Part shown: positions 14,452-63,068 of the stretch, in pieces | Layout of the letters: every line of letters starts with the position of its first letter | How positions within the stretch are numbered: position 1 is the stretch's first letter | Assembly (NCBI RefSeq): GCF_006345805.1 | Contig: NC_043002.1 | Location: forward strand, 35,774,001-35,838,000 | Direction: 5' to 3' | Length of the DNA: 64,000 nt | Source: Octopus sinensis | Lineage: Eukaryota | Translations under genes and position numbers: made by a program | The notes under the pieces: model-generated | What the model was told of the DNA's origin: nothing | What the model saw: the letters and a program-made list of their open reading frames with translations, nothing else | Database searches by the model: none

Positions 14452-17304
14452 TATTGTCTTTGCACAGCTTCTATCGTTGGAGATGTACTACGGTGCCAGC
14501 TATTCACTACCAGTGAACTAAAGTAACACCCCTTATTTTTCGAGCACTATCCGGAGTATTCGAGCGGTTCCAAGCAGTACTGTTTTCTGCAAGTGATCCA
14601 CCCTTGTTGCAACTCCTATTTGTCTCAAAATATTTTCAAGATTTTTACTCACTGATTTTTACCAGGACCCCGACAATTATTGGTACTACTACCGCCTTTT
14701 TCATCGTCCACAACTGCTTAACCTCCCAAGCTCACCGGTCATATCTATCGACTTGTCTTTCTTTCTTATCGCATACCTTGTTGTCAGCTGGGTATGCTAT
14801 ATCTGTGATCCAGCATCGTTTGCTTTCTTTCTCAATTAACACTGTGTCTGGCTTCTTATTCTCTATCTCATGGTCGTACTGAATCATAAAATCCAATAGG
14901 ATTTTTGCCTTATCACTTTCGATGATGCCTTCGGGTTTGTACCACTTTTTTGCTCTGTCAAATCCATACTTGTTGCAAAGTGTCCAATGGAGAATATTTG
15001 CTTATCATCACGCCTCTTATATTCTTTCTGGCTAGTGGCGTACATTGACTGGTTGTATGCCATGCGGTTTCACCTTTTTGTCCACAAATTCTGCACTTAT
15101 CACTTTCTGATGTGTTGTCTATTTTGTATTCAGTGTAATTCGTTCTTAGTGCTTGCTGTTGGGTAGCACAGATTTTAGAACCTCCGTTTCCGGTTTTAAA
15201 TCACTTTTAGTAATCCATAGCCATCTTTTTTTCTGTCTGTCTTATCTTCAACATCCCTATGAAATTGTCCATGTATTTTTTTCTTTATCCACCTATTTTC
15301 AGTTTCATTTATTCTCAAGTGCTTGTACAGTGCTTTATCTTTGCAATCTTCCATCCTACACACGCCTGACCTTCTTACTTCCAATAATAGTGGTTCTGTG
15401 GCACTTTTTACATACCAAGCTATGTTGTTTTCTTCTTCTTTAATGCTGTGTTCGCATTCAATCAGTCCTCTTCCTCTTGCCTCTCTTTTTCTTGGTACAT
15501 ACAGTCTGTCTATGTCACATTTTGGGTGGAGTATCCCATATCTAGTCAGAGACTTCCTTGTCTTTCTGTCTAAGCTGTTTACTTCGTCTACTGTCCATGC
15601 GATTACCTCTGTTCCCTATCTAAGGAGTGAAACCGCCCAGGTGTTGATAGCTCTAATTTTATTCCGTCCGTTTAATTTCGACTTAAGGATCAGTCTCAGT
15701 CTGCGCAAGTACTCCACCTTCAATTTTTCTATCATTTCTTTCTCCAATTTATCCATTTCCAAATCCCCAAGTACTTATAGCCCGTCTCTTCTATACATTT
15801 GATTTTGCCTCTCTTCAAGATTAACACACCACACTTTTTCTGTCAGAACTCCATTCTGATATCATTCACTAAACGTATACACCGTATCAACAAGGGAACT
15901 GATTTGGGATTCATCTTTGCCGTAAAGTTTGAGGTCATTCATGAATAATAAGTGGTCGACTTTTTGTAAGCGGCTTTTCAATGCATACTCAGCCTTTGCT
16001 TTCCTCAGAATCAGTGTTAGTGGTATCATGCACTGTACAAAGATCAGTGGGAACAGGCAGTCCGCTTGGAAGATGTCTCTCCTGATTTCTATTGCCCCTA
16101 AACTTCTTCCATATGGTGTCAGTTCCGTTCTCCACTTCGCCATATATTTTCCAAGCAATCGCTCAACATTCAATGCAATACCAAATAGGTTCATACATTC
16201 CATAATCCAAGAATGTGGGATCATATCGTACGCCTTACTATAATCGATCCATGGCATGGCTAAGTTACTTTTCCTCCTCTTGCAGTTTCTGAGAACAGTT
16301 TTGTCTACGAGGAGTTGATTTTTGGTACCTCTGCACTTATCCTTGCAACCCATCTGCTCATGTGACAGGACTCCATTCTTTTCCAGATATTCGTACATTG
16401 ACTCTGCGACTACTCCAGTCAATAGCTTCCACATAAGTAGCAAGCAGGATATCGGCCTGTAATTGTCTACCATATTGCCCTTTTCACTGTTTTTCAAGCA
16501 CAGCACTGTTCCACCCATTGTCAACCACTCTGGTGTTACTTGGTCGGCATTTAACAAGGTGTTGAGTTGTGCAGCTATTCGTGCATGATATTCACCAAAT
16601 CTTTTGATCCAGTAGCCTTGAACTCCATCTGGTCCCGGGGTCTTCCAGTTGCCCATTTTTTGCTGATTTCCTTCACTTCCCTAACTGAAATGAGTAGTTC
16701 TGCCTGTTTTGGACAGACTACTGTTTGTTTCAGTTCTTGCAACCATTCAGTATCCTTCTTGTGCTCCTTGTCTTTGCTCCAGAGGTTACTCCAAAACCTT
16801 TGACTTTCAATGTTTTCTGGTATCAACTTTTCGTCTGTACATTCTCCATTTAGTTCTTTGTAGAATCTCTTCTGATCTACACTGAGTAACCTATTCTGCT
16901 GGTAAACCTTCATTCTTTGGTCGTATCTTACCATCTTTGCTTTCTTTGCAACGAGGCGCTGTTTCAGTTCCTCCATTACCACTTCCAGGCTCTTTCTTTC
17001 AATATTATATTTCCTGTTAGTTGCCCTGTATTTTTGTTCGCTTTTAAGCTCCCCCTTTTCTTTTCGGACTAACACAGAAACGTTCTTCGAGAGCATATCT
17101 AACCGTGCCTATACTCTTCTTTTCCACCATGGATCTTTTCTTTTGTCACTCCCATTATATTTCTTTTTCTTGACATCAACACCCAAATTTTCTCTTACAA
17201 CAATACTTGCCGCTTTGATCAAATTATTTGTTTCTGTGATGTTTTTTGTTCTGATATATTTCAGAATTTCATTCACATTTTTCGTTTCTTGGTTCAATTT
17301 CCAC

Positions 17305-21458: not shown

Positions 21459-22781
21459 ACAGTATCAGGAATTAACGGTCCTTTCTATAAGATTTCTAGG
21501 CTCCTCTCTAAACCTCTCAAGCCCTTACAACACGCATTCCATGGACACGTCAGCAGCTCCCACGAAATCTTCACAAGACTCAAAGATATCTTAAAACTAA
21601 CAAACACCTTTTTAGCTTAGACGCAGTTTTCCTCTACACCTCTGTACCTGCACTTCCGGTCGTCGATATCCTCATAGACCACATCACGTCCTTATCTCCT
21701 CTCACATCTCCTTCCCCCAACCTCCATCCTAATTTCTTCTTCCCTCTCCTGCAACCTCCTCCTCCTCTTCATCTCCCACCTCCCCATCCATCAACTTCCA
21801 GGACTTTGGCCTCACACCCTCGGACATACGAGAGTTACTAACTATTATGATTAGTAACACCTATTTCCAAAATAACGGTGTGATTTACAAACAGACTTCC
21901 AGCCGACCTATGGGATCTGGCCTTTCAGGCCTGCTGGCCATCACGTATAAGAATAAGCTAGAACGCACAGCACTCAACACGTGCCGCTCATGCATCTTCT
22001 TCTGCAGGTACGTTGATGACATCCTTATCATCACGTCCTTCAGGGATGAGGCCATTAACATACACCGGACCTTCAATAACATCGACATAAACATCAAATT
22101 CGAGAATTGAACACCCAAACCCACCAGAGCCAAAGCCGCATACGTGAGAAACGAGATTGCACGTATAAACCACAATTGCAGCGAAGTGATTGACAAAGCC
22201 GTCAACACTAAACAGTTCCTCAGAGCCTTAACCCTGAATGGCTACCCACCATCTTTAGCCAAACAACGGCGCCTAAAATGTATATCAGGGTCAATAAACT
22301 CCCAAGTCCGGCACGTGCTTCCTAAAGCTACCACATTTTGACCACAGATCTACTGCAGCGATACAACACACAGTCCGCAGAGAAGGACTCGACACACAGA
22401 TAGTGCACATCAGCCCTTCTGTGAGAAAATCTCTGTCCAAGAACAACACCTCTCACTACTCCGAGGAGTGCACATTATCGAACTGTCACATTAATGACCC
22501 TGAATTGTGCCAGAGGACCTATGTTCTATACGAGATCATCTGTTGCAAATGTGGTGCATCCTACATAGGAAGCACAAGAAAACTGTATATCTGCATAAAG
22601 GAACACATGCAGGCAGAAGAAACATCTACGAAAATGCCAGACCCGGGAATTCACAATGCACATCAGGGCAACACAGCGGAACAGGGGCAACCTCAGAATC
22701 TCTGAGGCCATCCTCATACACCAAAGAAAACCAAATATCAACAACAGAAAAGAGTTACAAGAAGCTAGCTGGTTGCTATAG
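21459..22781 (+). mobile_element. Penelope-like element relic (RT plus GIY-YIG endonuclease), internally deleted
   Basis: VSGINGPFYKISRLLSKPLKPL; NTYFQNNGVIYKQTSSRPMGSGLSGLLA; FCRYVDDILII; then VLYEIICCKCGASYIGST...IKEH and RISEAILIHQRKPNIN. Contains stops and frameshifts. Confidence 0.92.
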
Positions 22782-23039: not shown

Positions 23040-25670
23040 TATATAATCTATTCAAGTACTAAGAAAATACGGAATATGGTGAAATATATCAAATTCAAAA
23101 TATACCCTAACAGACACGACAAGCACCTCGGCAACTTGGCTAGTAAAATAGAAAAATCAAAGAACCAGGATGGAATTATAGTACAATCTGATAAGACCAG
23201 GAACTTATACAGGCTAGATACACCACTTTATGATAATCTACTCGAAAAGGAAATAATGTAAAAATATAAAGTAGTTAATAAAAATTATCTAGATAATATT
23301 AACATAATCTCCAAACAAATTATGGTTAAATATGGTATTGAAAATAGATCTGAATCATATGTCCCGATGCATCTAAGAATAACGATTAAAGACCATTAGA
23401 ATAATTTTTACTCTAACCCCCAAATAAGGTTAATATGCCCTAGCAAGTCAGACATAGGCAGACTTAGTAAATTGATATTAGATAAATATATAGATAAATT
23501 AAATAGGTTAGGTAATCTTAAACTCTTGAATTGTATCCGTGACACTATTAAATGGTTTGATAATATTCAGGATAAAAATAGATGTAAATTGTTTAAAATT
23601 AATATAGAGAATTATTATTCATCCTTCAATGAAGTGTTTTAAATAAAGCCCTGTCATATGCCATGAAAAAGGTAAATATGTTATTTGAAGAAGTCAAAGT
23701 GGCGTTGGCCGCGAGGAAGTTTATTATGAAATATAAATAATGAAATATAAACTATGAGCAAGAAAAGACACAAGAGATCATGTGCCCCTGATTCTGTCCA
23801 AGTTACCGATCTTGTAGGATTATATCTTTTATCTGAACTACAGATAGAATTTACGAATACAAAGGGTGTTCTTTATAGGGACGACCTACTACTTATAACC
23901 AGGAACTGTGCTAATAGTTCATTTGAATGCCTTAAGAAGAAAATGTACAAGTTCTTTAAGAATTATGGTCTGGGAATATCTATAGAGAATGAACACTATG
24001 CAGTAAATTATCTAGACGTCAACCTTAATCTTGTCACTAATAAGATCCATCCATTCCATAAGTTGAATGAAAATTTAATGTATATCATTAGTTCTTTAAG
24101 TAAACATCCTGGATCAGTTAAAGACGCTTTAATAGATAATATAGGCAAAAGAATATCTATGCTATCCTCAGATTATGCCACTTTTAATATAAATGTCCCA
24201 TATTATAATAAGGCATTAAAAGACGCAGGGTATAACTCTAATATAAAATTCTTTAATTATTACGAACACCTTAATAATATAACGAGTAATCCTAATAATA
24301 ATTCTAACAGCAAAAATATGAAATAAAAGACAATATAAGAAACTAAATAAGGATAAAAACAATGATTACAATAATATTAATGATTACAATAATAATAGTA
24401 ATATTGATAATGAGAATACGATCAATAGTAAGAAACATAGTAAATTATACAAGCGGAAATATAATACACCCAAGAATAACACTTTAATACCGATGATGTT
24501 TAATAATGATAATATAAAAAATATAAAAAATAAAAATTAAAAAGGATATTATATGGTTAATTATTTCGTATGGGGCTCAAATGATGACTAATATTTTTAA
24601 GGAGACACTTAAAATTCTAAAAATGTTTTTTAATAAGGACAAAATTTATTCAAATATATTTTCCAATAAAACCATAAGAGTAGGCCACTCAACATCGAGG
24701 AATGTAGGCAATATCATTTCCTCTATAAATAATAAGAAATTAAATAATTATTATAATAGAAGAATAAATAATAGCTTTAGCCATAATGTAACCAATAGTG
24801 ATGGGAGTCCTAATCAAAAGATAGAAAAATGTTCATGTCGTGAACTAAATGTAAGCTCTCTAATAATTATAATATTGATAATGTAATTTATAAATGTGTA
24901 ATAAGCTCTAAGAACAATAATAATAAAATTATAAATAAGGTTTAAACAGGATCTACAGCTAATGAAATTTAAAAAAGACTCTCCCAACACTACCAGACTT
25001 TCAAAAATCCTAATTCCTAGTCCACAGCTTTAAGTAAGTATATATGGGAAATAAAATCTAGAAAAAGAGATTACACTCTTAGTTGGAGTATAATAGGCAG
25101 AGCCCACTCTTATAATATTGGGAATAAAATGTGTTTATTATGTATAACAGAATTTATGAAACTGCTAGAGTCTAGAGATAAATTACTAAACACATACGAT
25201 GAACGAGGAGTAAATGTAGACACAAAAGTAATTATATTTTCAATAAAATGAAATACTGAGCCCCACCCTTGAATCTAATGGCCACGTATTATAGTTCCTT
25301 CATAATTGATAATTTTAATTTTAACTTAAGTTAAAGAAAGTATATTTTATACCCTGCTGGTATACTGGTTATATTCTTCAAAGTATTATTACGTGATGTA
25401 CAAATAGACACCACGAGTTTACCTTCAGATATACTTATTAGGTTATTTTTTTTTGTATTATCTTAAATAGAATACCTGCACATCTATTAATCCCCCAAAC
25501 TGAATTATTATTGATTTCTATTATATATTTTGCATATTTCTAGATAAATAGATAAATATATAAATATATGATAATCAAGACCCCACTGTACGATATGCAG
25601 ATGCATGTAGTGCTAAAGGGTTGTACCTGATTGATTTGGAAATTCATTTTCCCAAATTATTAAAATTAAT
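23040..25670 (+). mobile_element. AT-rich Penelope-like element relic (possibly Naiad-type), RT plus GIY-YIG, ending at (TA)n
   Basis: VQSDKTRNLYRLD, ITIKDH, RLICPSKSDIGRLSK, DSVQVTDLVGLYLL, LYRDDLL, VNYLDVNLNL; then KCSCR...NVIYKC, TGST, STALSKYIWEIK, MCLLC, KCRH. Many stops. Clade assignment is from recalled motifs only. Confidence 0.9.
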
Positions 25671-27744: not shown

Positions 27745-28237
27745 GGCGGCGAGGTGGCAGAAACGTTAGCATACCGGGCGAAATGTTTAGCGGTATTTCG
27801 GCTGCCGTTACGTTCTGAGTTCAAATTCCGCCGAGGTCGACTGTGCCTTTCATCCTTTCGGGGTCGATTAAATAAGTACCAGTTACGGACTGGGGTCGAT
27901 ATAATCGACTTAATCCGTTTGTCTGTTCTTGCTTGTCCCTTCTGTGTTTAGCCCCTTGTGGGTAGTAAAGAAATAGGTATTTCGGCTGCCGCTACGTTCT
28001 GAGTTCAAATTCCGCCGAGGTCGACTTTGCCTTTCATCCTTTCGGGGTCGATTAAATAAGTACCAATTACGCACTGGGGTCGATGTAATCGACTTAATCC
28101 GTTTGTCTGTCCTTGTTTGTCCCCTCAGTGTTTAGCTCCTTGTGGGTAGTAAAGAAATAGGTATTTCGTCTGTCTTTACTTTCTGAGTTCAAATTCCGCC
28201 GAGGTTGACTTTGCCTTTCATCCCTTCGGGGTCGATA
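27745..28237 (+). mobile_element. SINE with tandemly reiterated body (about 2.5 units)
   Basis: Head AAGGCGGCGAGGTGGCAGAAACG, then the body GTATTTCG...GGTAGTAAAGAAATAG repeats with a period of about 185 bp. Confidence 0.92.
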
Positions 28238-34439: not shown

Positions 34440-35930
34440 TGTGCATGTATAGGTGTATGGATGACGGTATGGTTGCTGGGAAGTGGTCAGTGTTAGTGTG
34501 TGCGGAGTAGTGTGATGTAGTGTTGTAGGGTGTGGTGTGGTGTTGGTGCTGGAAAGTTTGTCAATGCTAGTGAAAGCAGGGTGGTGCGATGTAGTGTGGT
34601 GGTGTGGTGTAGTGATGTGTGGTGTGTTGTGTATTGTGTTGTGGTGTGATGGTGTGGTGTGGTGATATGTAGTATGTTGTGTTATAGTATAGTGGTGTGT
34701 GGTGTTTTGGTGCGGTGTGGCATGATGTGGTGTGTAAGGGTGGGGTGTAAGTTGGGGTGAGGGTGTGGGGGTAAGGGTGGGTATGAAGGAGTGAGGCGTG
34801 TGGTGGGCGGGATGGCAAGTATAGGGATGGGAAGTAGAAACGCGTCTGTGTAGATGTGGGGTAATGATGGAGGAGTGACGAAGAAGGGAGAGGGTGGTAG
34901 GGAGGTGGGTAGGAATGAAGAGAGGAGGTAGGTGTCAGAGCAAAAGAGGAGAGAGAGATGGTGGGAGTGAAGAAAGGAAGTAGATGTGAGAGGAAGGTAA
35001 CAGAGAGTAGGGTAGTTAGATGAAGAGGGGTGGGGAGTTGAGCCCATGTGGGGCAAAGGAGCGAAGAGAGAAGAGTAATTCCTGTTCACGGCGAAGACGG
35101 GAATCCGGATGGCCCCTGTGCAAGGACAATCCGAACACAAGACAGGTGTTGTAAAGAATGACCGGTAGAGTGGAAATGGCGCGAGACCGGGGTGTCGATG
35201 CCGAGTCTGATGTCTCGGAGATGTTCCGCGAACCGGTCAGCCAAACGGCGTCCCGTTTGACCGATGTACAGAGAAGGACAGAGAGAGCAGGAGATGCAGT
35301 AAATGACGTTGCTAGAAGTGCAAGGGAAGGAGTCAGTGATTCGATGATGGGTGCCTGTGAGGATGGTGGTGTTGGAGAGGTAGGGGCTAGTGCGGCAGCG
35401 TGGGCGGGAGCAGAGGAACGAGCCGGGTTGAGAGGTGGAGTTAGGGAAGAAACTGAGGACCAGGAGGTCACGTAGGTTGTGGGCTCGTTTGAAGGAGAGG
35501 AGGGGTAGGTTAGGAAATATGTACGAAGAGGAGGGTCGGACTGGAGACGCCGGAAGGCTCGGAGAATGGTGCGTTGGAGAGATAGGGTGGAGGGGTGGTA
35601 GGTGACGAGAAACAGGAGATGGATAACGGTGGGGCGCGTGCGGGAAGAGAGAGCAGATGCACGGTCCACGGAACGTGCTCTGGCAAGGGCGGTGTGGATA
35701 GTGGTGAGGAGATATCCACGAAAAATGAAGTGGTGAGCCATGAGTTGAGTTGAGACTGAATCTCAAAGTCATGGTTGTCACTCCAGAGCCTGCGCAGACG
35801 GAGGAATTGGGCGAAGGGGATGGAGAGCTTGGTGTGTTTCGAGTGAGAGGAGGAGAAGTTGAGGTATGAGTGTGAGTCGGTGTGTTTCTTGTGGATGGGG
35901 GTGGTGAGAGTGGAGTGATGAATGCTGACC
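34440..35930 (-). mobile_element. GC-rich Penelope-like 3' fragment (RT thumb plus GIY-YIG plus low-complexity 3' region)
   Basis: TDSHSYLNFSSSH...SIPFAQFLRLRRL; FPCTSSNVIYCISCSLCPSLYIGQTGRRLADRFAEHLRDIR...VSRHF; REQELLFSLRSFAPHGLN. Frameshifted. Confidence 0.93.
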
Positions 35931-36403
35931 GAAATGTCGAGAAAGGCGACGAAACTGTTATATATAAACTTAAAACCAGTGCATTTTGCACTTTTTTATA
36001 AGTTTTTATTTTGTTTTAGTTTATGAAAAAAATCATGTCTAATTTATTGCTTAACTGCACAACAAACTCTTGAAAATGCAGCTTTCAGCAAAAATTTCAG
36101 CTGCAGATGTAGAGATGGGCGAAAAACAATTAAGTTCAGCTAATTAGTATGTGTAAATAAAACAGCTCAAGTTCTCTATGTAGTACAGAGATCAAATTTG
36201 AAATGCCGGTTCTGAAAGTTTTTCTAGAACAACAATCAGTTCAATATCTAATCAAATATGCAAATTACCTATGATATATTCAAACCTCAAATATGCAAAT
36301 TAAGAATTATAAATTTTAAAATTTTCAATAAACCTTTTACATATTTAGCTATGATTAAGTAGAATGATATTGTAATTGTTTGTAAAAAATATACTGTGGA
36401 AGC

Positions 36404-36783
36404 ACTCCGTCGGTTACGACGACGAGGGTTCCGGTTGATCCGAATCAACGGAACAGCCTGCTCGTGAAATTAACGTGTAAGTGGCTGAGCACTCCACAGA
36501 CACGTGTACCCTTAACGTAGTTCTCGGGGATATTCAGCGTGACACAGAGAGTGACAAGGCCGGCCCTTTGAAATACAAAGGTACAACAGAAACAGGAAGT
36601 AAGAGTGAGAGAAAGTTGTGGTGAAAGAGTACAGCAGAGATCACCACCATCCCCTGCCGGAGCCTCGTGGAGCTTTAGGTGTTTTCGCTCAATAAACACT
36701 CACAACGCCCGGTCTGGGAATCGAAACCGCGATCCTATGACCGCGAGTCCGCTGACCTAACCACTGGGCCATTGCGCCTCCAC
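36404..36783 (-). mobile_element. tRNA-derived SINE (copy A)
   Basis: Minus-strand head GGAGGCGCAATGGCCCAGTGGTTAGG...GGTTTCGATTCCC (A and B boxes); 3' end CCCTCGTCGTCGTAACCGACGGAGT. Confidence 0.92.
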
Positions 36784-37432
36784 TATAAAATATACTAACA
36801 TTAAAACCAATGGAAAGCCTGGCCTTTGTAGATACATATCCTGGTGCAGCCCTCCTCCGAATCCCGTATACTTTAGCTACAGGACTATTTTCTGCTATTT
36901 GACACATAACCGGGGTTCTTAACAGATACTACGACCCCTGGCTAGAGCGAACCTGAAAGTAGTGGTGACTAAGCGATAAGTCCGTATTTCTCCAAATATC
37001 CTGAGCACCCTAACTGGAGGTTCACCATTACATGCAGTTTATTGTCTTCTCCATTTTGTAAGGGAGAGTTTTTGAAATCTAAAGCAGTTGATCAGTGTGT
37101 GTTCTCAATAAAGAAAATTACAGTTTCTGTTTTTGAGCCACTTTAAAACTGAACAAAATGTCAATTACTTACCAAAAAAAAAATCTGCGTAGATCACTAC
37201 CTTTGAAGTAAGCTACATATATTAAAAAATACACATTTTATGAATATATTAAAAATGAATAAATTAAAAAATGAATATATTAAAGAATGAATATATTAAA
37301 AAATACACATTTTATGAATAGTGAAAGGAATAATTTCATATCAAATTTTGTTATTTTGTTTAATCAGTAATCAATTTTTAATTTTCGAAATTTGTGTACA
37401 ACAGATATATCGCACGTGAATGTGATGTACCT

Positions 37433-37769: not shown

Positions 37770-38797
37770 GACTCCGCCGGTTACAACGACGAGGGTCCCA
37801 GCTGATACGATCAACGGAACAGCTTGCTCGTGAAATTAACGTGCAAATGGCTGAGCATTCCACAGACACGTGTACCCTTAACGTAGTTCTCGGGGATAAT
37901 CAGCGTGACACAGAGAGTGACAAGGCCGGCCCTTTGAAATACAAAGGTACAACAGAAACAGGAAGTAAGAGTGAGAGAAAGTTGTGGTGAAAGAGTACAG
38001 CAGAGATCACCACCATCCCCTGCCGGAGCCTCGTGGAGCTTTAGGTGTTTTCGCTCAATAAACACTCACAACGCCCGGTCTGGGAATCGAAACCGCGATC
38101 CTATGACCGCGAGTCCGCTGACCTAACCACTGGGCCATTGCGCCTCCACTATAAAATATACTAACATTAAAACCAATGGAAAGCCTGGCCTTTGTAGATA
38201 CATATCCTGGTGCAGCCCTCCTCCGAATCCCGTATACTTTAGCTACAGGACTATTTTCTGCTATTTGACACATAACCGGGGTTCTTAACAGATACTACGA
38301 CCCCTGGCTAGAGCGAACCTGAAAGTAGTGGTGACTAAGCGATAAGTCCGTATTTCTCCAAATATCCTGAGCACTCTAACTGGAGGTTCACCATTACATG
38401 CAGTTTATTGTCTTCTCCATTTTGTAAGGGAGAGTTTTTGAAATCTAAAGCAGTTGATCAGTGTGTGTTCTCAATAAAGAAAATTACAGTTTCTGTTTTT
38501 GAGCCACTTTAAAACTGAACAAAATGTCAATTACTTACCAAAAAAAAATCTGCGTAGATCACTACCTTTGAAATAAGCTACATATATTAAAAAATACACA
38601 TTTTATGAATATATTAAAAATGAATAAATTAAAAAATGAATATATTAAAGAATGAATATATTAAAAAATACACATTTTATGAATAGTGAAAGGAATAATT
38701 TCATATCAAATTTTGTTATTTTGTTTAATCAGTAATCAATTTTTAATTTTCGAAATTTGTGTACAACAGATATATCGCACGTGAATGTGATGTACCT
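37770..38797. repeat. Chimeric B/A SINE plus near-identical duplicate of about 36535-37432
   Basis: 37900-38797 matches 36535-37432 apart from a few substitutions and A-run length; 37770-37899 carries B-type variants. Confidence 0.93.
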
Positions 38798-48198: not shown

Positions 48199-49568
48199 AG
48201 CGAAATGCTTCACTCATGCTATCACCCTAATTTCTCCTCCTTTCTCTTTGCAAGTGTGCAACGATTAAAGTGAAAGTATTTATATAAAACGAGAGAAGTG
48301 TACCTTAAACCACTACTCAAAAAAAAAACAACACAGCAAACAGAAACAAATAAATACATAGCGATTTACTCCTCACACAATTTCTTCAATTAGAGTTTAC
48401 CTATGATTTTTCTAAGTACTTCCATTCGGTCATGGCATACAAAGTTTCTTTCAATTTCAACCCCATTTCAGAAAAAATTCGAGAAAACTAAATATTTTAC
48501 CATTTCACTCTTTCACTCTGCCTATTACTCCCACTTCCTCTTTACACACAGACACGCAAATATATAAATAAAATTGTAAGCTAACGTGTGTGTGTGTGTG
48601 CGTGTGTGTGAGTGTGTGTGTGTGTGTGCGCGTGTGTGTGTGTGTGTGACAGGGATGACCCATTCAGACTGGACATCCTTTTTGCTAGAAGAAGATCACC
48701 TATGCTACACCACTGGTTTTCAGTTCATATTAATCAAATTAATATTCACAACAAGAAGGACTATTCATTATAATACATCAGTTCCACACATTTACCCTGG
48801 TTCCATTTCGGACAACTGCACAAACATTTGCCATTTCACACATGTATGTAAACAAATTCCTTTCTTAAAAATTTCAATTCATACAAGGTTTTTAAGGACG
48901 AATATAAGATCTAAAGTATATCCAAGTAGCAGAAAGATCGCCCAAAAGTGTATATAGATATTTAAATGTATTTATATATTCATCTATACACAGATGTATG
49001 TATAATGTGTGTGTATATATTTCCATAGAGGTAACCTTTCACTCCATACAAAGTTATTTAGGACGAATATAAGATCTAAAGTATATCCAAGTAGCAGAAA
49101 GATCGCCCAAAAGTGTATATAGATATTTAAATGTATTTATATATTCATCTATACACAGATGTATGTATAATGTGTGTGTATATATTTCCATAGACGTAAC
49201 CATTCACTCCGCACAAAGTTTTTTAGGATGAAAATAAGAACTAAAGTTATCTCTAAGTAGCACAAAGATCGCCCAAAAGTGTATATAGATATATAAATGT
49301 ATTTATATATTCATCTATGCACACATGTATGTATAATGTGTGTGTATATATTTCCATAGAGGTAACCATTCACTCCATACAAAGTTTTTCAGGACGAAAA
49401 TAAGATCTAAAGTTATCTCTAAGAAACAGAAAGATCGCCCAAAAGTGTATATAGATATTTAAATGTATTTATATATTCATCTATACACACATGTATGTAT
49501 AATGTGCGTGTATATATTTCCATAGAGGTAACCATTCAACCCATACAAAGTTTTTTAGGACGAAAATA
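47943..49568 (+). mobile_element. Helitron-like 5' segment containing an internal tandem array
   Basis: Starts TCTCTTATTATAAAAGGCAGATTTTATCTGCC (TC start, early palindrome) and leads into the 165-bp array. Identity inferred from context. Confidence 0.45.
48875..49568. repeat. 165-166-bp tandem repeat, about 4.2 copies
   Basis: GATCGCCCAAAAGTG recurs at 48936, 49101, 49267 and 49433. Confidence 0.95.
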
Positions 49569-50412
49569 TTTATATATAAAAGAAAGGTTGTGTGTCTGTC
49601 TACTCCGATTTAGATTCCTAACTACTCCCACATTTTGCGATGCAGTTTAACCAAAACCGGGTATTTTTTAGTCGTGATTCATATCGAGCCCTTCTGGGTA
49701 TTAGCGCGCGTCTACGATGAGTCTACGATTTTACAAATAATTTACCATCATTTTTTCCATTTTAATGCATATTTCTTTAAATAAAGGGAAGTAACTCTCA
49801 AACTTCACACCAATATGCGTGCTCATATGCGACGTAATATCACATCAGCAGCATTTCCTCATACCCTCCTTGCACTTGGCGAAGGCAAAATACCAGGGGA
49901 TGAAAATGGTAATATTGCCATCGATTCCATTTGTACCATTGTTAAGACGCCTTCTGATCTCAGAGATGCAGTGTTCCCAGATCTACAAGCTAATTATCAG
50001 AATATGGATTGGATTGGCAAAAAGGCTATACTGGCCCCGAGGAATAAAACTGTTCACCATATTAATGATGAAATGCTAAAACTCATTCCTGGGGAAGTCT
50101 ATGTATATCAATCTATCGATACAACTCCTGACCCAGAGGACGTCATCAACTATCCAATAGAGGTACCCAATTCCTTTGAGCACCCCGGACTACCACCACA
50201 CTTTCTCAAACTTAAAGTTGGTGCCCCTATAATGCTCATCAGAAATTTGGTTCCCCCAAAACAATGCAATGGCACACGTTTGATCGTTAAGTCCTTATCT
50301 CCCACCGTAAACTTATATCAATATTTGCCTGAATAATCATCATAATTCAGTGCAATCATTAACAGTACTTTCAAGCAATTCAGCCCCGAGCAACGCCGGG
50401 CAATTCTGCTAG
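49569..50412 (+). mobile_element. Internally deleted Helitron with PIF1-helicase fragment
   Basis: ORF 49815-50336: KAILAPRN, GLPPHFLKLKVGAPIMLIRNL, CNGTRLIV. 3' hairpin CCCGAGCAACGCCGGG then CTAG; inserted between A and T. Confidence 0.9.
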
Positions 50413-52230: not shown

Positions 52231-53419
52231 ACCTTTTGGTGAACTTACAGTATTATTATCCGGTGACTAGAAACAAATTCTTCCATGTGTACGCCAAGGT
52301 GTCAGATCAATAATTGTTGATGCAACACTAAAGAGATCTTTTCTTTGGGACAATGTGAAAGTTGTGGAGTTGACAACCAATCTAAGACTTCTTACTGAAG
52401 GTCATTCTGATGAAAGAGAGTTTGCTAATTACGTTACTGATGTAGGAAATTGTAACGTTTTTGTTGAACAAAGCATAGGTTAATTCAAAATCAAGCTACT
52501 CAATGACCTTTGTCTTGAAAGTGGTATTCTTTCAGATCTGTGTGATTTTGTATATGCTGGCGTCAAAAATAACTTCACAAACCCTGCGTGGCTTGCAAAG
52601 AAAACTATTGTTACATCAACAAATGAAGCAACACAATTTGTGAATGATTTTCTGTTGACCAGGATCCCTGGTGAGCTAAAATTATACAGAAGCTCAGATA
52701 CAGTTGATAATGAAATTCTGCACCCAATCGAATTCATCAACAAATTTACACCATCACGGTCTCCACCATACATTTTCAAACTGAATAAAAAATGCTGCAT
52801 AATGCTTTTGAGAAATTTAGATGCTACTAATAGACGTTGCAATTGCACACGCTACATCATTATCACTTTACATGATCATATTGTTGAGGCTGAGATTGCT
52901 TCTGGTCCTTAAGCAGGATCAACACTGCTAATCCCAAGAATACCACATGTATCTCAAGAAATGGAATTTTCATACACATTTACGCGCAAACAATTTCCTG
53001 TCAAGCCAGCTTTTGCCTTGACGTGCAACAAGACACAGGGACAGACTTTTGAACAAATTGGAATATATTTTCCGACACAATTCTTCTCACGTGGTCAGCT
53101 GTATGTTGCATTATCTAGAGTTCGAAAGAAGGCTAATGTAAAAATATTGACTGAGAGAAATGGAAGCAGTATGATTGCTGACAATTGTGTCTACAAGGAG
53201 ATACTACTTTAAAGCAAAATATGTTTTTTAGCAAGTTGCAATAAATGAAATTAACATATAAATTAATTTGTAAAGTAACATATATTTTATGAGGAATTAA
53301 GTTAGTTTGACATATTTCAACACGTACCAGGTGAATGATACCGTTATATTATATAATTTTAAATTCATCACGTGTTCTCACAGCACCAGACTTTTGTGCG
53401 TGTGTGTACGTATGTGTGT

Positions 53420-59654: not shown

Positions 59655-60287
<633 letters not shown>

Positions 60288-60542
60288 AAAAATAAGGGTG
60301 AAAAAATTAGATATTAATTTAATAATACCATCAATTTAACACCAAGTGGCTTAGCGCATAAAAACCAGGGATACAATAAAAACTTATACACAAATATAAG
60401 AGAGTGTCCACTATGTGGTCGACTCTTGCGCAAAAAATAGATCCGCTATGGTCTCAACCACCAAGAATTGTTTCCAAGGAGAAATAGCACAACTATGAGC
60501 GTAAACGAGCAGGACAAATGAAAAATAACATAAATGTAGATT

Positions 60543-60621
60543 AATTCTAGACAATTGATTCGCTATTAATGAATTATGCAATTTTACTTACATAATATAT
60601 CCATAGCTCATCAATAGAATT
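60543..60621 (-). ncRNA. Hammerhead copy with two core substitutions (probably inactive)
   Basis: Minus strand: AATTCTA-TTGATGA-GCTAT...ATAGC-GAAT-CAATTG-TC-TAGAATT; changes at 60614 and 60558 relative to the plus copy. Confidence 0.8.
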
Positions 60622-60950
60622 TGTCTTGGATACAATTTACTAAACTGCACGCTAGATTTTAACATAACGTCAAACACACGTGTGGTTTAGTCAATTATAT
60701 TCGCAGTTATGATTCGAATGCCCTCGCTATAGCGCGCAAAAAATCCAAATTAATATCTAATTTTTTCACCCTTATTTTTGATTTTAATTATACTGCAGAA
60801 AATTTTTTATGCAGTATTTGTTTCCGGGATTTTGGCGCGCTATAGCGAGGGCATTCGAATCATAACTGCGAATATAATTGACTATACCACACGTGTGTTT
60901 GACGTTATGTTAAATTCTAGCGTGCGGTTTAGTAAATTGTATCCAAGACA

Positions 60951-61029
60951 AATTCTACTGATGAGCTATGGATATATTATGTAAGTAAAATTGCATAATT
61001 CATTAATAGCGAAACAATTGTCTAGAATT
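60951..61029 (+). ncRNA. Intact type I hammerhead ribozyme
   Basis: AATTCTA-CTGATGA-GCTAT...ATAGC-GAAA-CAATTG-TC-TAGAATT. 7-bp stem I, 5-bp stem II base extended by ATTATGTAA/TTGCATAAT, palindromic stem III, GUC triplet (cut after 61022). Confidence 0.92.
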
Positions 61030-62059
61030 AATCTACATTTATGTTATTTTTCATTTGTCCTGCTTGTTTACGCTCATAGTTGTGCTAATTCTCCTTGGAA
61101 ACAATTCTTGGTGGTTGAGACCATAGCGGATCTATTTTTAGCGCAAGAGTCGACCACATAGTGGACACTCTCTTATATTTGTATATATATATATATATAT
61201 ATATACGTGTGGCCGACATCAAAGACATTTAAAGTTACCAACTTGTTCCATGTATTTCTTTATACCGTGTTCCTGTCAAATGATATTACGGCCTTCTGAG
61301 TAGGGTCATATTAGATGGAATACAACTTATCCATCTATACCAACATCAAGTGGAACCAGAACTAGTATTATTTTGGAGTGTTATTCATACAAAACAACAA
61401 TTAAAATAAAAGAAGCAGAATGATGTGAGACGTCATACCACCATTCACAGAACAACGCATGTTATGTTTTTCTTTTATTCCCTTGTTCTCCCCTCTTGTT
61501 TTTCTAAATTATCTCAAACAAAGAAATATTTCTTACGAAGAAACAAAACAATGAAAGCTACCAGAAAGAAGAATTAGACTAGTCAGAGTTCTTGATATCC
61601 GGAGACATTTATGGGATAAGAGAAAGGAAATGATGTTAACTGATGAAAAGTTGAAACCGAATCTTTCAATCAGCTAGATAGAGCTAACTTCTTTCTGTGC
61701 CGATATCACATTTAAAATATAACTGTTTTTCTTTTTTTAAAAGTTACTTTTATCAGGATGACAAATGTTGTAAAATTAACCAATTGCACTATTTTAGTGA
61801 TATTTGTATTAAAAGACACAATCCCTGTATTCAACTTGTACTTTGTTTGTCAACTTCAACAATGGACGGCAAACGTTCACTTTGGGCGTAGAGAACTGTT
61901 AGAGACGGCAACGTTGAACTCAGGGCGTAGAGAACCGTTATGAAAGTCATTCTATTCGATGCTCTAATTGCTTTTAAGTGCTTCTTCATTGGATGCTTAC
62001 TTGGCTATTTGCACGCTCTCAAAAAAAATTAAATTAAATTATTCTGTATAATGGTTTTG

Positions 62060-62659: not shown

Positions 62660-63068
62660 AGCGAGCTGGCAGAAACGTTAGCACGCCGGGCGAAATGTGT
62701 AGCCGTATTTCGTCTGCCGTTACGTTCTGAGTTCAAATTCCGCCGAGGTCGACTTTGCCTTTCATCCTTTCGGGATCGATAAATTAAGTACCAGTTATGC
62801 ACTGGGGTCGATGTAATCGACTTAATCCGTTTGTCTGTCCTTGTTTGTCCTCTCTGTGTTTATCCCCTTATGGGTAGTAAAGAAATAGGTATTTTGTCTG
62901 CCGCTACGTTCTGAGTTCAAATTCCGCCGACGTTGACTTTCATCCTTTCGAGGTCGATTAAATAAGTACCAATTACGCACTGGGGTCGATATAATCGACT
63001 TAATCCGTTTGTCTGTCCTTGTTTGTGCCCTCTGTGTGTATCCCCTTGTGGGCAGTAAAGAAATAAGA
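62660..63068 (+). mobile_element. SINE with duplicated body
   Basis: GCGAGCTGGCAGAAACG head plus two body units ending GTAAAGAAATA; same layout as 27745. Confidence 0.92.

Follow-up and report, generated by a model that had tools for sequence, protein, structure and literature searches.

A protein-free hammerhead ribozyme repeat inserted head-to-head in a TA microsatellite of Octopus sinensis, with the footprint of a Penelope-like retroelement

Within a TA microsatellite of Octopus sinensis lies a 0.9-kb insertion that consists of two head-to-head, overlapping pieces of one protein-free repeat unit, and one of these pieces carries a hammerhead ribozyme motif with an intact core. From the anatomy of this insertion and from related contigs in public sequence runs, we think it probable that the locus represents an ORF-less hammerhead repeat family, whose unit (B-spacer-A-u in the notation used below) is likely about 505 nt long and probably relies for its copying on a Penelope-like RT/GIY-YIG protein that acts in trans. 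Membership of the family in the non-LTR retrozymes is likely. All coordinates refer to the window, by which we mean the whole stretch of 64,000 nucleotides that was analysed (contig NC_043002.1 of assembly GCF_006345805.1, positions 35,774,001 to 35,838,000).

Results

The insertion is bounded on the left by a (TA)n run at 60178-60287 (TRF period 2, 56 copies) and on the right by (TA)n at 61183-61205, which belongs to a TRF run spanning 61174-61205. Its left arm (60288-60746, minus strand, 459 nt) reads A-u-B in ribozyme sense, with its 3' end at (TA)n and its 5' end truncated at the inversion point, and its right arm (60747-61182, plus strand, 436 nt) reads B-spacer-A, with its 5' end at the inversion point and its 3' end at (TA)n. 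Read in this sense, both arms therefore point outward, each 3' end running into (TA)n. The two copies of B (60288-60320 on the minus strand and 60747-60779 on the plus strand, the latter adjoining the junction) are identical at 33 of 33 bases after reverse complementation, a match with a chance of about 5e-12 within the element, and the two copies of A (60390-60746, minus strand, 357 nt; 60827-61182, plus strand, 356 nt) agree at 347 of 357 positions, the differences being nine substitutions and one gap. The remaining parts occur once each, namely u (60321-60389, minus strand, 69 nt) in the left arm and the spacer (60780-60826, plus strand, 47 nt) in the right arm. This is the order of parts, (TA)n flanks included, that the initial annotation had described. 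The inversion junction itself, 60746/60747, is blunt, head-to-head and without microhomology. The two arms are two different permutations of the unit (A-u-B versus B-spacer-A), and it is in B that the left arm, at its 3' end, overlaps with the right arm, at its 5' end. The inner border of this 33-nt segment is set by the truncation point and not by a second start site. The 3' ends of the arms lie 102 nt apart, which equals u plus B.

Between 60177 and 60274, the (TA)n run on the left comes close to mirror symmetry, with G and C at its ends and phase shifts at 60213 (AA) and 60239 (TT). The symmetry is off by one TA unit and could reflect fold-back synthesis at the target or chance.

Taken in the order B-spacer-A-u, the parts give a unit of 505 nt with the right-arm A or 506 nt with the left-arm A, at a GC content of 0.33, a length that is inferred from the junctions and that agrees with the ORF-less unit of about 506 nt proposed earlier. 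Reading frames in the doubled unit reach at most 25 codons from ATG and at most 76 codons stop-free. No RT/GIY-YIG ORF was found in the insertion and, since it holds no ORF, it is not an autonomous Penelope-like element. Features of a Penelope-type footprint are present in the form of an inverted, 5'-truncated, head-to-head copy and a (TA)n microsatellite at both ends, such footprints being marked by AT-rich or microsatellite targets and by the lack of a discernible target duplication. The strand inversion that had been invoked for the insertion is better read as an ordinary Penelope head-to-head pair of 5'-truncated copies.

Elsewhere in the window there are three broken retroelement ORF remnants (21733-22705 and 23751-24326 on the plus strand, 35016-35995 on the minus strand) that by eye we take to be Penelope-like from their RT and GIY-YIG motifs; none has a sequence match to the hammerhead unit. 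A Pfam search of six ORF remnants in the window gave RVT_1 on two and no domain on four, again with no link to the unit, and among the three Penelope-like remnants RVT_1 was assigned only to 21733-22107. A broken LINE-type RT remnant occupies 15196-17108 on the minus strand, with RVT_1 on 15862-16680. Beside the remnant at 35016-35995 lies a direct repeat of 1029 bp at 98.5% (36404-37432 and 37771-38797) with a 186-bp partial copy between its two members. Tandem repeats of 184 bp (27792-28236), 178 bp (62705-63065) and 166 bp (48873-49568) are also present; the first two share sequence and are presumably SINE-like. Finally, two ORF pieces on the plus strand (49785-50336 and 52484-52912) look to us, by eye, like Helitron/PIF1 helicase remnants.

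The right copy of A contains a type I hammerhead motif on the plus strand at 60951-61029, with an intact core and a predicted cut after 61022 (61022/61023). Its helix I has 7 bp, helix II has 5 bp with a 9-bp hairpin extension, and helix III has 2 bp closed by a palindromic AAUU loop. This was the sole strict hammerhead match on either strand of the 64 kb, a second motif descriptor found the same one only, and no hammerhead of equal quality occurred in 20 shuffled windows; a search of the 64-kb window with Rfam at the gathering threshold returned no matches. The corresponding copy in the left arm (60543-60621, minus strand) has decayed, with CUGAUGA changed to UUGAUGA at 60614 and GAAA to GAAU at 60558, and is predicted from these two core changes to be inactive. 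The complete type I hammerhead that the initial annotation had placed in A is therefore confirmed for the right arm but not for the left copy. At both of the changed positions, the letters of the intact core account for 99-100% of the aligned depth in all four public runs with which the unit was compared, and in helix II both pairs that vary have both partners changed with pairing kept. Pattern scans for the hammerhead gave no matches in viral contigs and none in metagenome contigs. A scan with a 20-mer from u gave none in metagenome contigs, none in viral contigs and one in genome contigs; this match, in a Cellvibrionales chromosome (L001), was dismissed as chance, only the 20 bases being alike.

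As a circle, the 505-nt unit has a predicted fold of -134.0 kcal/mol, compared with -100.4 +/- 5.3 kcal/mol for 40 dinucleotide shuffles (z -6.4), and its antisense folds at only -100.3 kcal/mol. The right arm alone gave a z of -4.9, with none of 100 shuffles as good. Helices of 7 bp and 4 bp are predicted between B and u, at mean pair probabilities of 0.97-0.98, forming a hairpin that spans the u-B junction. The spacer has its own predicted hairpin at 60790-60817, and its last bases, 60818-60826, are predicted to pair with 61096-61104 in a helix that crosses the spacer-A junction and runs into a long stem enclosing the ribozyme. Variation in public copies was then set against this fold, after a predicted helix pairing the catalytic core with helix III had been taken out. 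Of the 40 variants counted (the top 40 of 92 variant rows), five equal the right arm, and among the other 35, 16 are at unpaired positions, 15 keep the pairing and four break it. These four pair-breaking variants compare with 11.5 +/- 2.1 expected, and none of 5000 random placements was as low, in a count of unphased variants that leans toward structure in that the structure was predicted from this copy. At three pairs, of which two belong to helix II, both bases vary and remain compatible, against an expectation of 0.5 pairs (P ~0.01). Since the fold beats its shuffles and the variants spare the predicted pairs, a folded RNA of the ribozyme strand is likely, under this structural model, to be under selection over most of the unit.

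Four of 24 listed public sequence runs were compared with 60321-60826, which contains each part of the unit once. At likeness 85, 766, 484, 49 and 18 contigs aligned per run, and inspection covered 32 of 1357 aligned pieces, 24 of 176 loose-end rows and the top 40 of the 92 variant rows. In the run index, 20 runs contain part of the stretch; they come from 11 studies, carry four organism labels, and none of them is recorded as RNA. The best share of sampled words for any of these 20 runs is 0.39, so none reaches half, and the allele of the window itself did not turn up independently in this material.

The joints A-u, u-B, B-spacer and spacer-A each recur separately in public contigs. The spacer-A joint (60746/60826) was found in six contigs, and two further joints end at 60826 with the A ends slightly shifted. 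In one contig of run X10 (record 14), B plus spacer (80 nt, four differences) is followed directly by A from 60746 to 60516 (31 differences in 231), and the contig extends through the whole ribozyme. Because the three parts are contiguous in a contig that is 13% diverged in A, the B-spacer-A order is, as judged from the sequences, inherited in a diverged lineage and the seam is old. One-base deletions in the terminal T run of B (60775-60778) were called in runs X1, X3 and X10, which would imply, indirectly, that alignments there continue from B into the spacer. On the other side of B, loose ends before 60329 are B-like by eye, being alike to the window at 24 of 30 bases in X3 and 25 of 29 in X10, and the loose ends of both runs share what appears by eye to be a phased double change of U-A to C-G in the predicted u-B hairpin (60325/60314). 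Recurrence of the B-spacer-A junction had been named in the initial annotation as the check on its reading. Since spacer-A is present in all four runs, the whole of B-spacer-A-hammerhead in one diverged contig, and B-like letters after u in two of the four runs, the junctions of the unit are family features and not a one-off switch.

The insertion sites and the inversion also have counterparts elsewhere. In run X11, two contigs run out into (TA)n at 60385, a position five bases away from where the right arm stops; with (TA)n at both ends of the insertion itself, these bear out the TA targeting suggested earlier. Opposite-strand joints within the unit in X3 and X10 (60359/60544, 60366/60447, 60380/60461 and 60395/60451) mark four more insertions of this family in inverted form, broken at different places, and show that the inversion recurs.

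These results bear on the explanation that a single template switch at this locus produced B-spacer-A, or that the inversion is an assembly fold-back. That none of the 32 pieces inspected, out of 1357 aligned, crosses the inversion junction of the locus, 60746/60747, and that both copies of B are identical would suit such an origin, but we regard it as very improbable given the recurrence of spacer-A in four runs and of B-spacer-A in a diverged contig. The arms, moreover, differ at 10 places, five of which are departures of the left arm from the family letter, and at 60531 and 60499 they agree with each other in letters seldom seen in the family, as for one old event from one source. Five of the nine substitutions between the arms, both ribozyme core positions included, occur among the top 40 of 92 variant rows, and at each of these five the right arm carries the family letter; the other four are absent from these rows. 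The arm differences fit a single insertion, drawn from a single source, whose arms then decayed independently, where a fold-back would give identical arms. An assembly artefact is thus an unlikely source of the inversion, and the one-off template switch is, by these comparisons, largely refuted.

Closure of the unit was assembled from separate pieces only, because none of the 32 pieces inspected, out of 1357 aligned, carries u-B-spacer. The u-B joint, 60321/60747, is not among the tabulated joints in any of the four runs, and no head-to-tail dimer was found at the locus or elsewhere in the 64-kb window. The absence of the u-B joint from the tabulated joints favors the main rival account, namely that an autonomous Penelope/Neptune-type element left the two arms behind as 5'-truncated stumps, that the terminal region of this element would itself read B-spacer-A-u-B (a pLTR plus extension), and that no free monomer moves. 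In addition, no helix is predicted across the B-spacer seam, and depth in the aligned runs declines on going from u to the 5' portion of A, a pattern that 5' truncation would give. In the accessible parts of the literature, truncated copies that lie head to head, with one of their ends extended, are the footprint standard for Penelope (PMC8557442, PMC3846280), and hammerheads found on opposite strands 100-700 bp apart in Schistosoma were read as truncated elements (PMC4209133). We nevertheless consider this account unlikely, if worth some weight, since B, spacer and A are contiguous in the contig that is 13% diverged in A and no coding-like DNA lies upstream of B or of the spacer in the pieces inspected. 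A weaker point in the same direction, given that repeat contigs are short, is that merely 1-2% of the aligned material in the two large runs, X1 and X3, runs on into unlike sequence.

Depth along the unit is uneven. The B-proximal part of u (60321-60364) has the deepest coverage, at 5-10x the depth of its neighbours, and many contigs diverge past 60364, as if several related families shared this hairpin arm, which is a candidate protein-binding or RT-start motif. The B-proximal end of the spacer is also deeper in the alignments; spill-over from B could account for that excess.

Twin priming by LINEs requires poly(A) at the 3' end, and there is no poly(A) at the end of either arm. For this reason, and because a Penelope mechanism better fits two internal starts, a duplication of 357 + 33 nt and both ends in (TA)n, we give hardly any credence to the proposal of a satellite-type or SINE-like hammerhead repeat that was placed by LINE twin priming or DNA recombination with no Penelope role. 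The proposal draws on the naming of LINEs as a possible retrozyme driver in the accessible text of PMC7229834, on the LINE-type RT remnant with RVT_1 at 15862-16680 of the window, and on the existence of hammerhead satellites such as pDo500 (PMC2837043).

Discussion

The reading that we prefer, an ORF-less hammerhead family copied by a Penelope-like protein, places the unit beside two groups of known elements. Head-to-tail tandem units, at least two of them with a hammerhead, and self-cleaving RNA present as linear and circular monomers define the retrozyme class in the available text of its descriptions, together with the lack of coding capacity and of LTR, PBS and PPT (PMC7229834, 10.64898/2026.07.22.740005). 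Units were given there as 150-450 bp (PMC7229834; Cervera and de la Pena 2020) and as 51-972 bp, with retrozymes related to pLTRs (10.64898/2026.07.22.740005; Li, Clavereau and Pollet 2026), so that 505 nt lies above the first range and within the second. As far as the same texts describe them, metazoan non-LTR retrozymes share with our unit a type I hammerhead with a 2-bp helix III and a palindromic tetraloop, the lack of an ORF, a GC content below 50% (33% here), strong self-pairing and a proposed dependence on Penelope. The unit is unlike them in the long hairpin on its helix II and in showing no head-to-tail dimer within the 64-kb window, and it is unlike the retrozymes of both descriptions, in their available parts, in forming an inverted pair inserted in (TA)n.

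The second group is that of the Penelope-like elements, for which an inverted 5'-truncated copy, an optional tail and a microsatellite bias are reported as general (PMC8557442, in the text available) and for which insertions with an inverted pLTR and tail are described (PMC3846280, likewise). In the accessible part of PMC11167929, the protein of PAc, a Poseidon element from the anole, cuts AT-rich target DNA on both strands and extends each of them; synthesis begins at two positions within the RNA, which define the tail, and the template is uncleaved RNA. Set against these excerpts, the octopus insertion resembles Penelope-like insertions and those of PAc in its head-to-head, 5'-truncated arms with unequal 3' ends, in a hammerhead upstream of the 3' end, in an AT-rich or microsatellite target and in both arms reading through the ribozyme cut site. 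It is unlike Penelope-like elements, as there described, in that it is without an RT/GIY-YIG ORF, B leading to the spacer and then to A instead of to an ORF, and in that its 3' ends are 102 nt apart and not 30-40. The Penelope tail, which is optional, occurs at one 3' end and measures 30-40 bp; B was considered as a classical tail of this kind and set aside, since the 3' ends differ by 102 nt.

The unit of pDo500, from Dolichopoda cave crickets, is about 500 bp. This repeat also has a hammerhead per unit and compensatory stem changes, but it forms satellite arrays, whereas the repeat described here is a dispersed, inverted, (TA)n-bounded insertion (PMC2837043, in its available text). Another comparison is provided by Chlamys elements such as MRC1, which are likewise non-autonomous and Penelope-like and which form pLTRs and head-to-tail copies; unlike the unit here, they come from a green alga and most are without canonical hammerheads (PMC8557442, as far as its accessible text goes).

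The proposed route to this insertion would begin with transcription of a source array of head-to-tail units. The template would be either an uncleaved multimer or a circle cut by the hammerhead and re-ligated. Both arms cross the ribozyme cut site, with 3' ends 262 nt (left) and 160 nt (right) downstream of it; because of this crossing, a cut linear monomer cannot be the template. A Penelope protein would nick both strands of the (TA)n target, and reverse transcription would begin at two internal positions of the RNA, one 160 nt and the other 262 nt past the cut site, with 102 nt between them. Both cDNAs would stop early and then be bluntly joined at 60746/60747, and the left ribozyme copy would have decayed after the insertion. 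A more specific form of this scheme, which we put forward only tentatively, is that of a (TA)n-targeting, high-copy retrozyme: each target strand would serve the Penelope RT as a primer, and synthesis would begin at two fixed positions on a circular RNA of 505 nt and run across the re-ligated hammerhead junction.

Both the class of element and the inverted architecture are already published, and Penelope elements commonly give rise to inverted pairs of hammerheads; the value of the locus lies in the combination of class and architecture on an ORF-less unit. Already in print, in the accessible portions of the papers cited above, are retrozymes as Penelope derivatives, units reaching 972 bp and pairs of hammerheads that lie on opposite strands at distances of 100-700 bp. 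No cephalopod retrozyme is described in the titles and abstract openings of the literature searched, a scope that leaves most subscription journals and the repeat databases outside it, and the main text of a 2026 paper on Octopus vulgaris repeats has no occurrence of ribozyme or retrozyme (PMC13282606).

Which enzyme drives animal retrozymes, and whether that enzyme copies circles, has been argued from co-occurrence and pLTR similarity (PMC7229834, Discussion section), and the mechanism of their mobilisation is said to remain to be elucidated in the available text of 10.64898/2026.07.22.740005. An ORF-less unit with a Penelope footprint ties retrozyme and Penelope by the anatomy of an insertion, and the conserved u-B hairpin beside the 3' end is singled out as an RNA element. 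If the reading with a 505-nt circle is true, the insertion would be direct genomic evidence for the still hypothetical partnership of Penelope and retrozymes, and the family would also offer a ready in vitro substrate in a host group without retrozymes in the literature searched.
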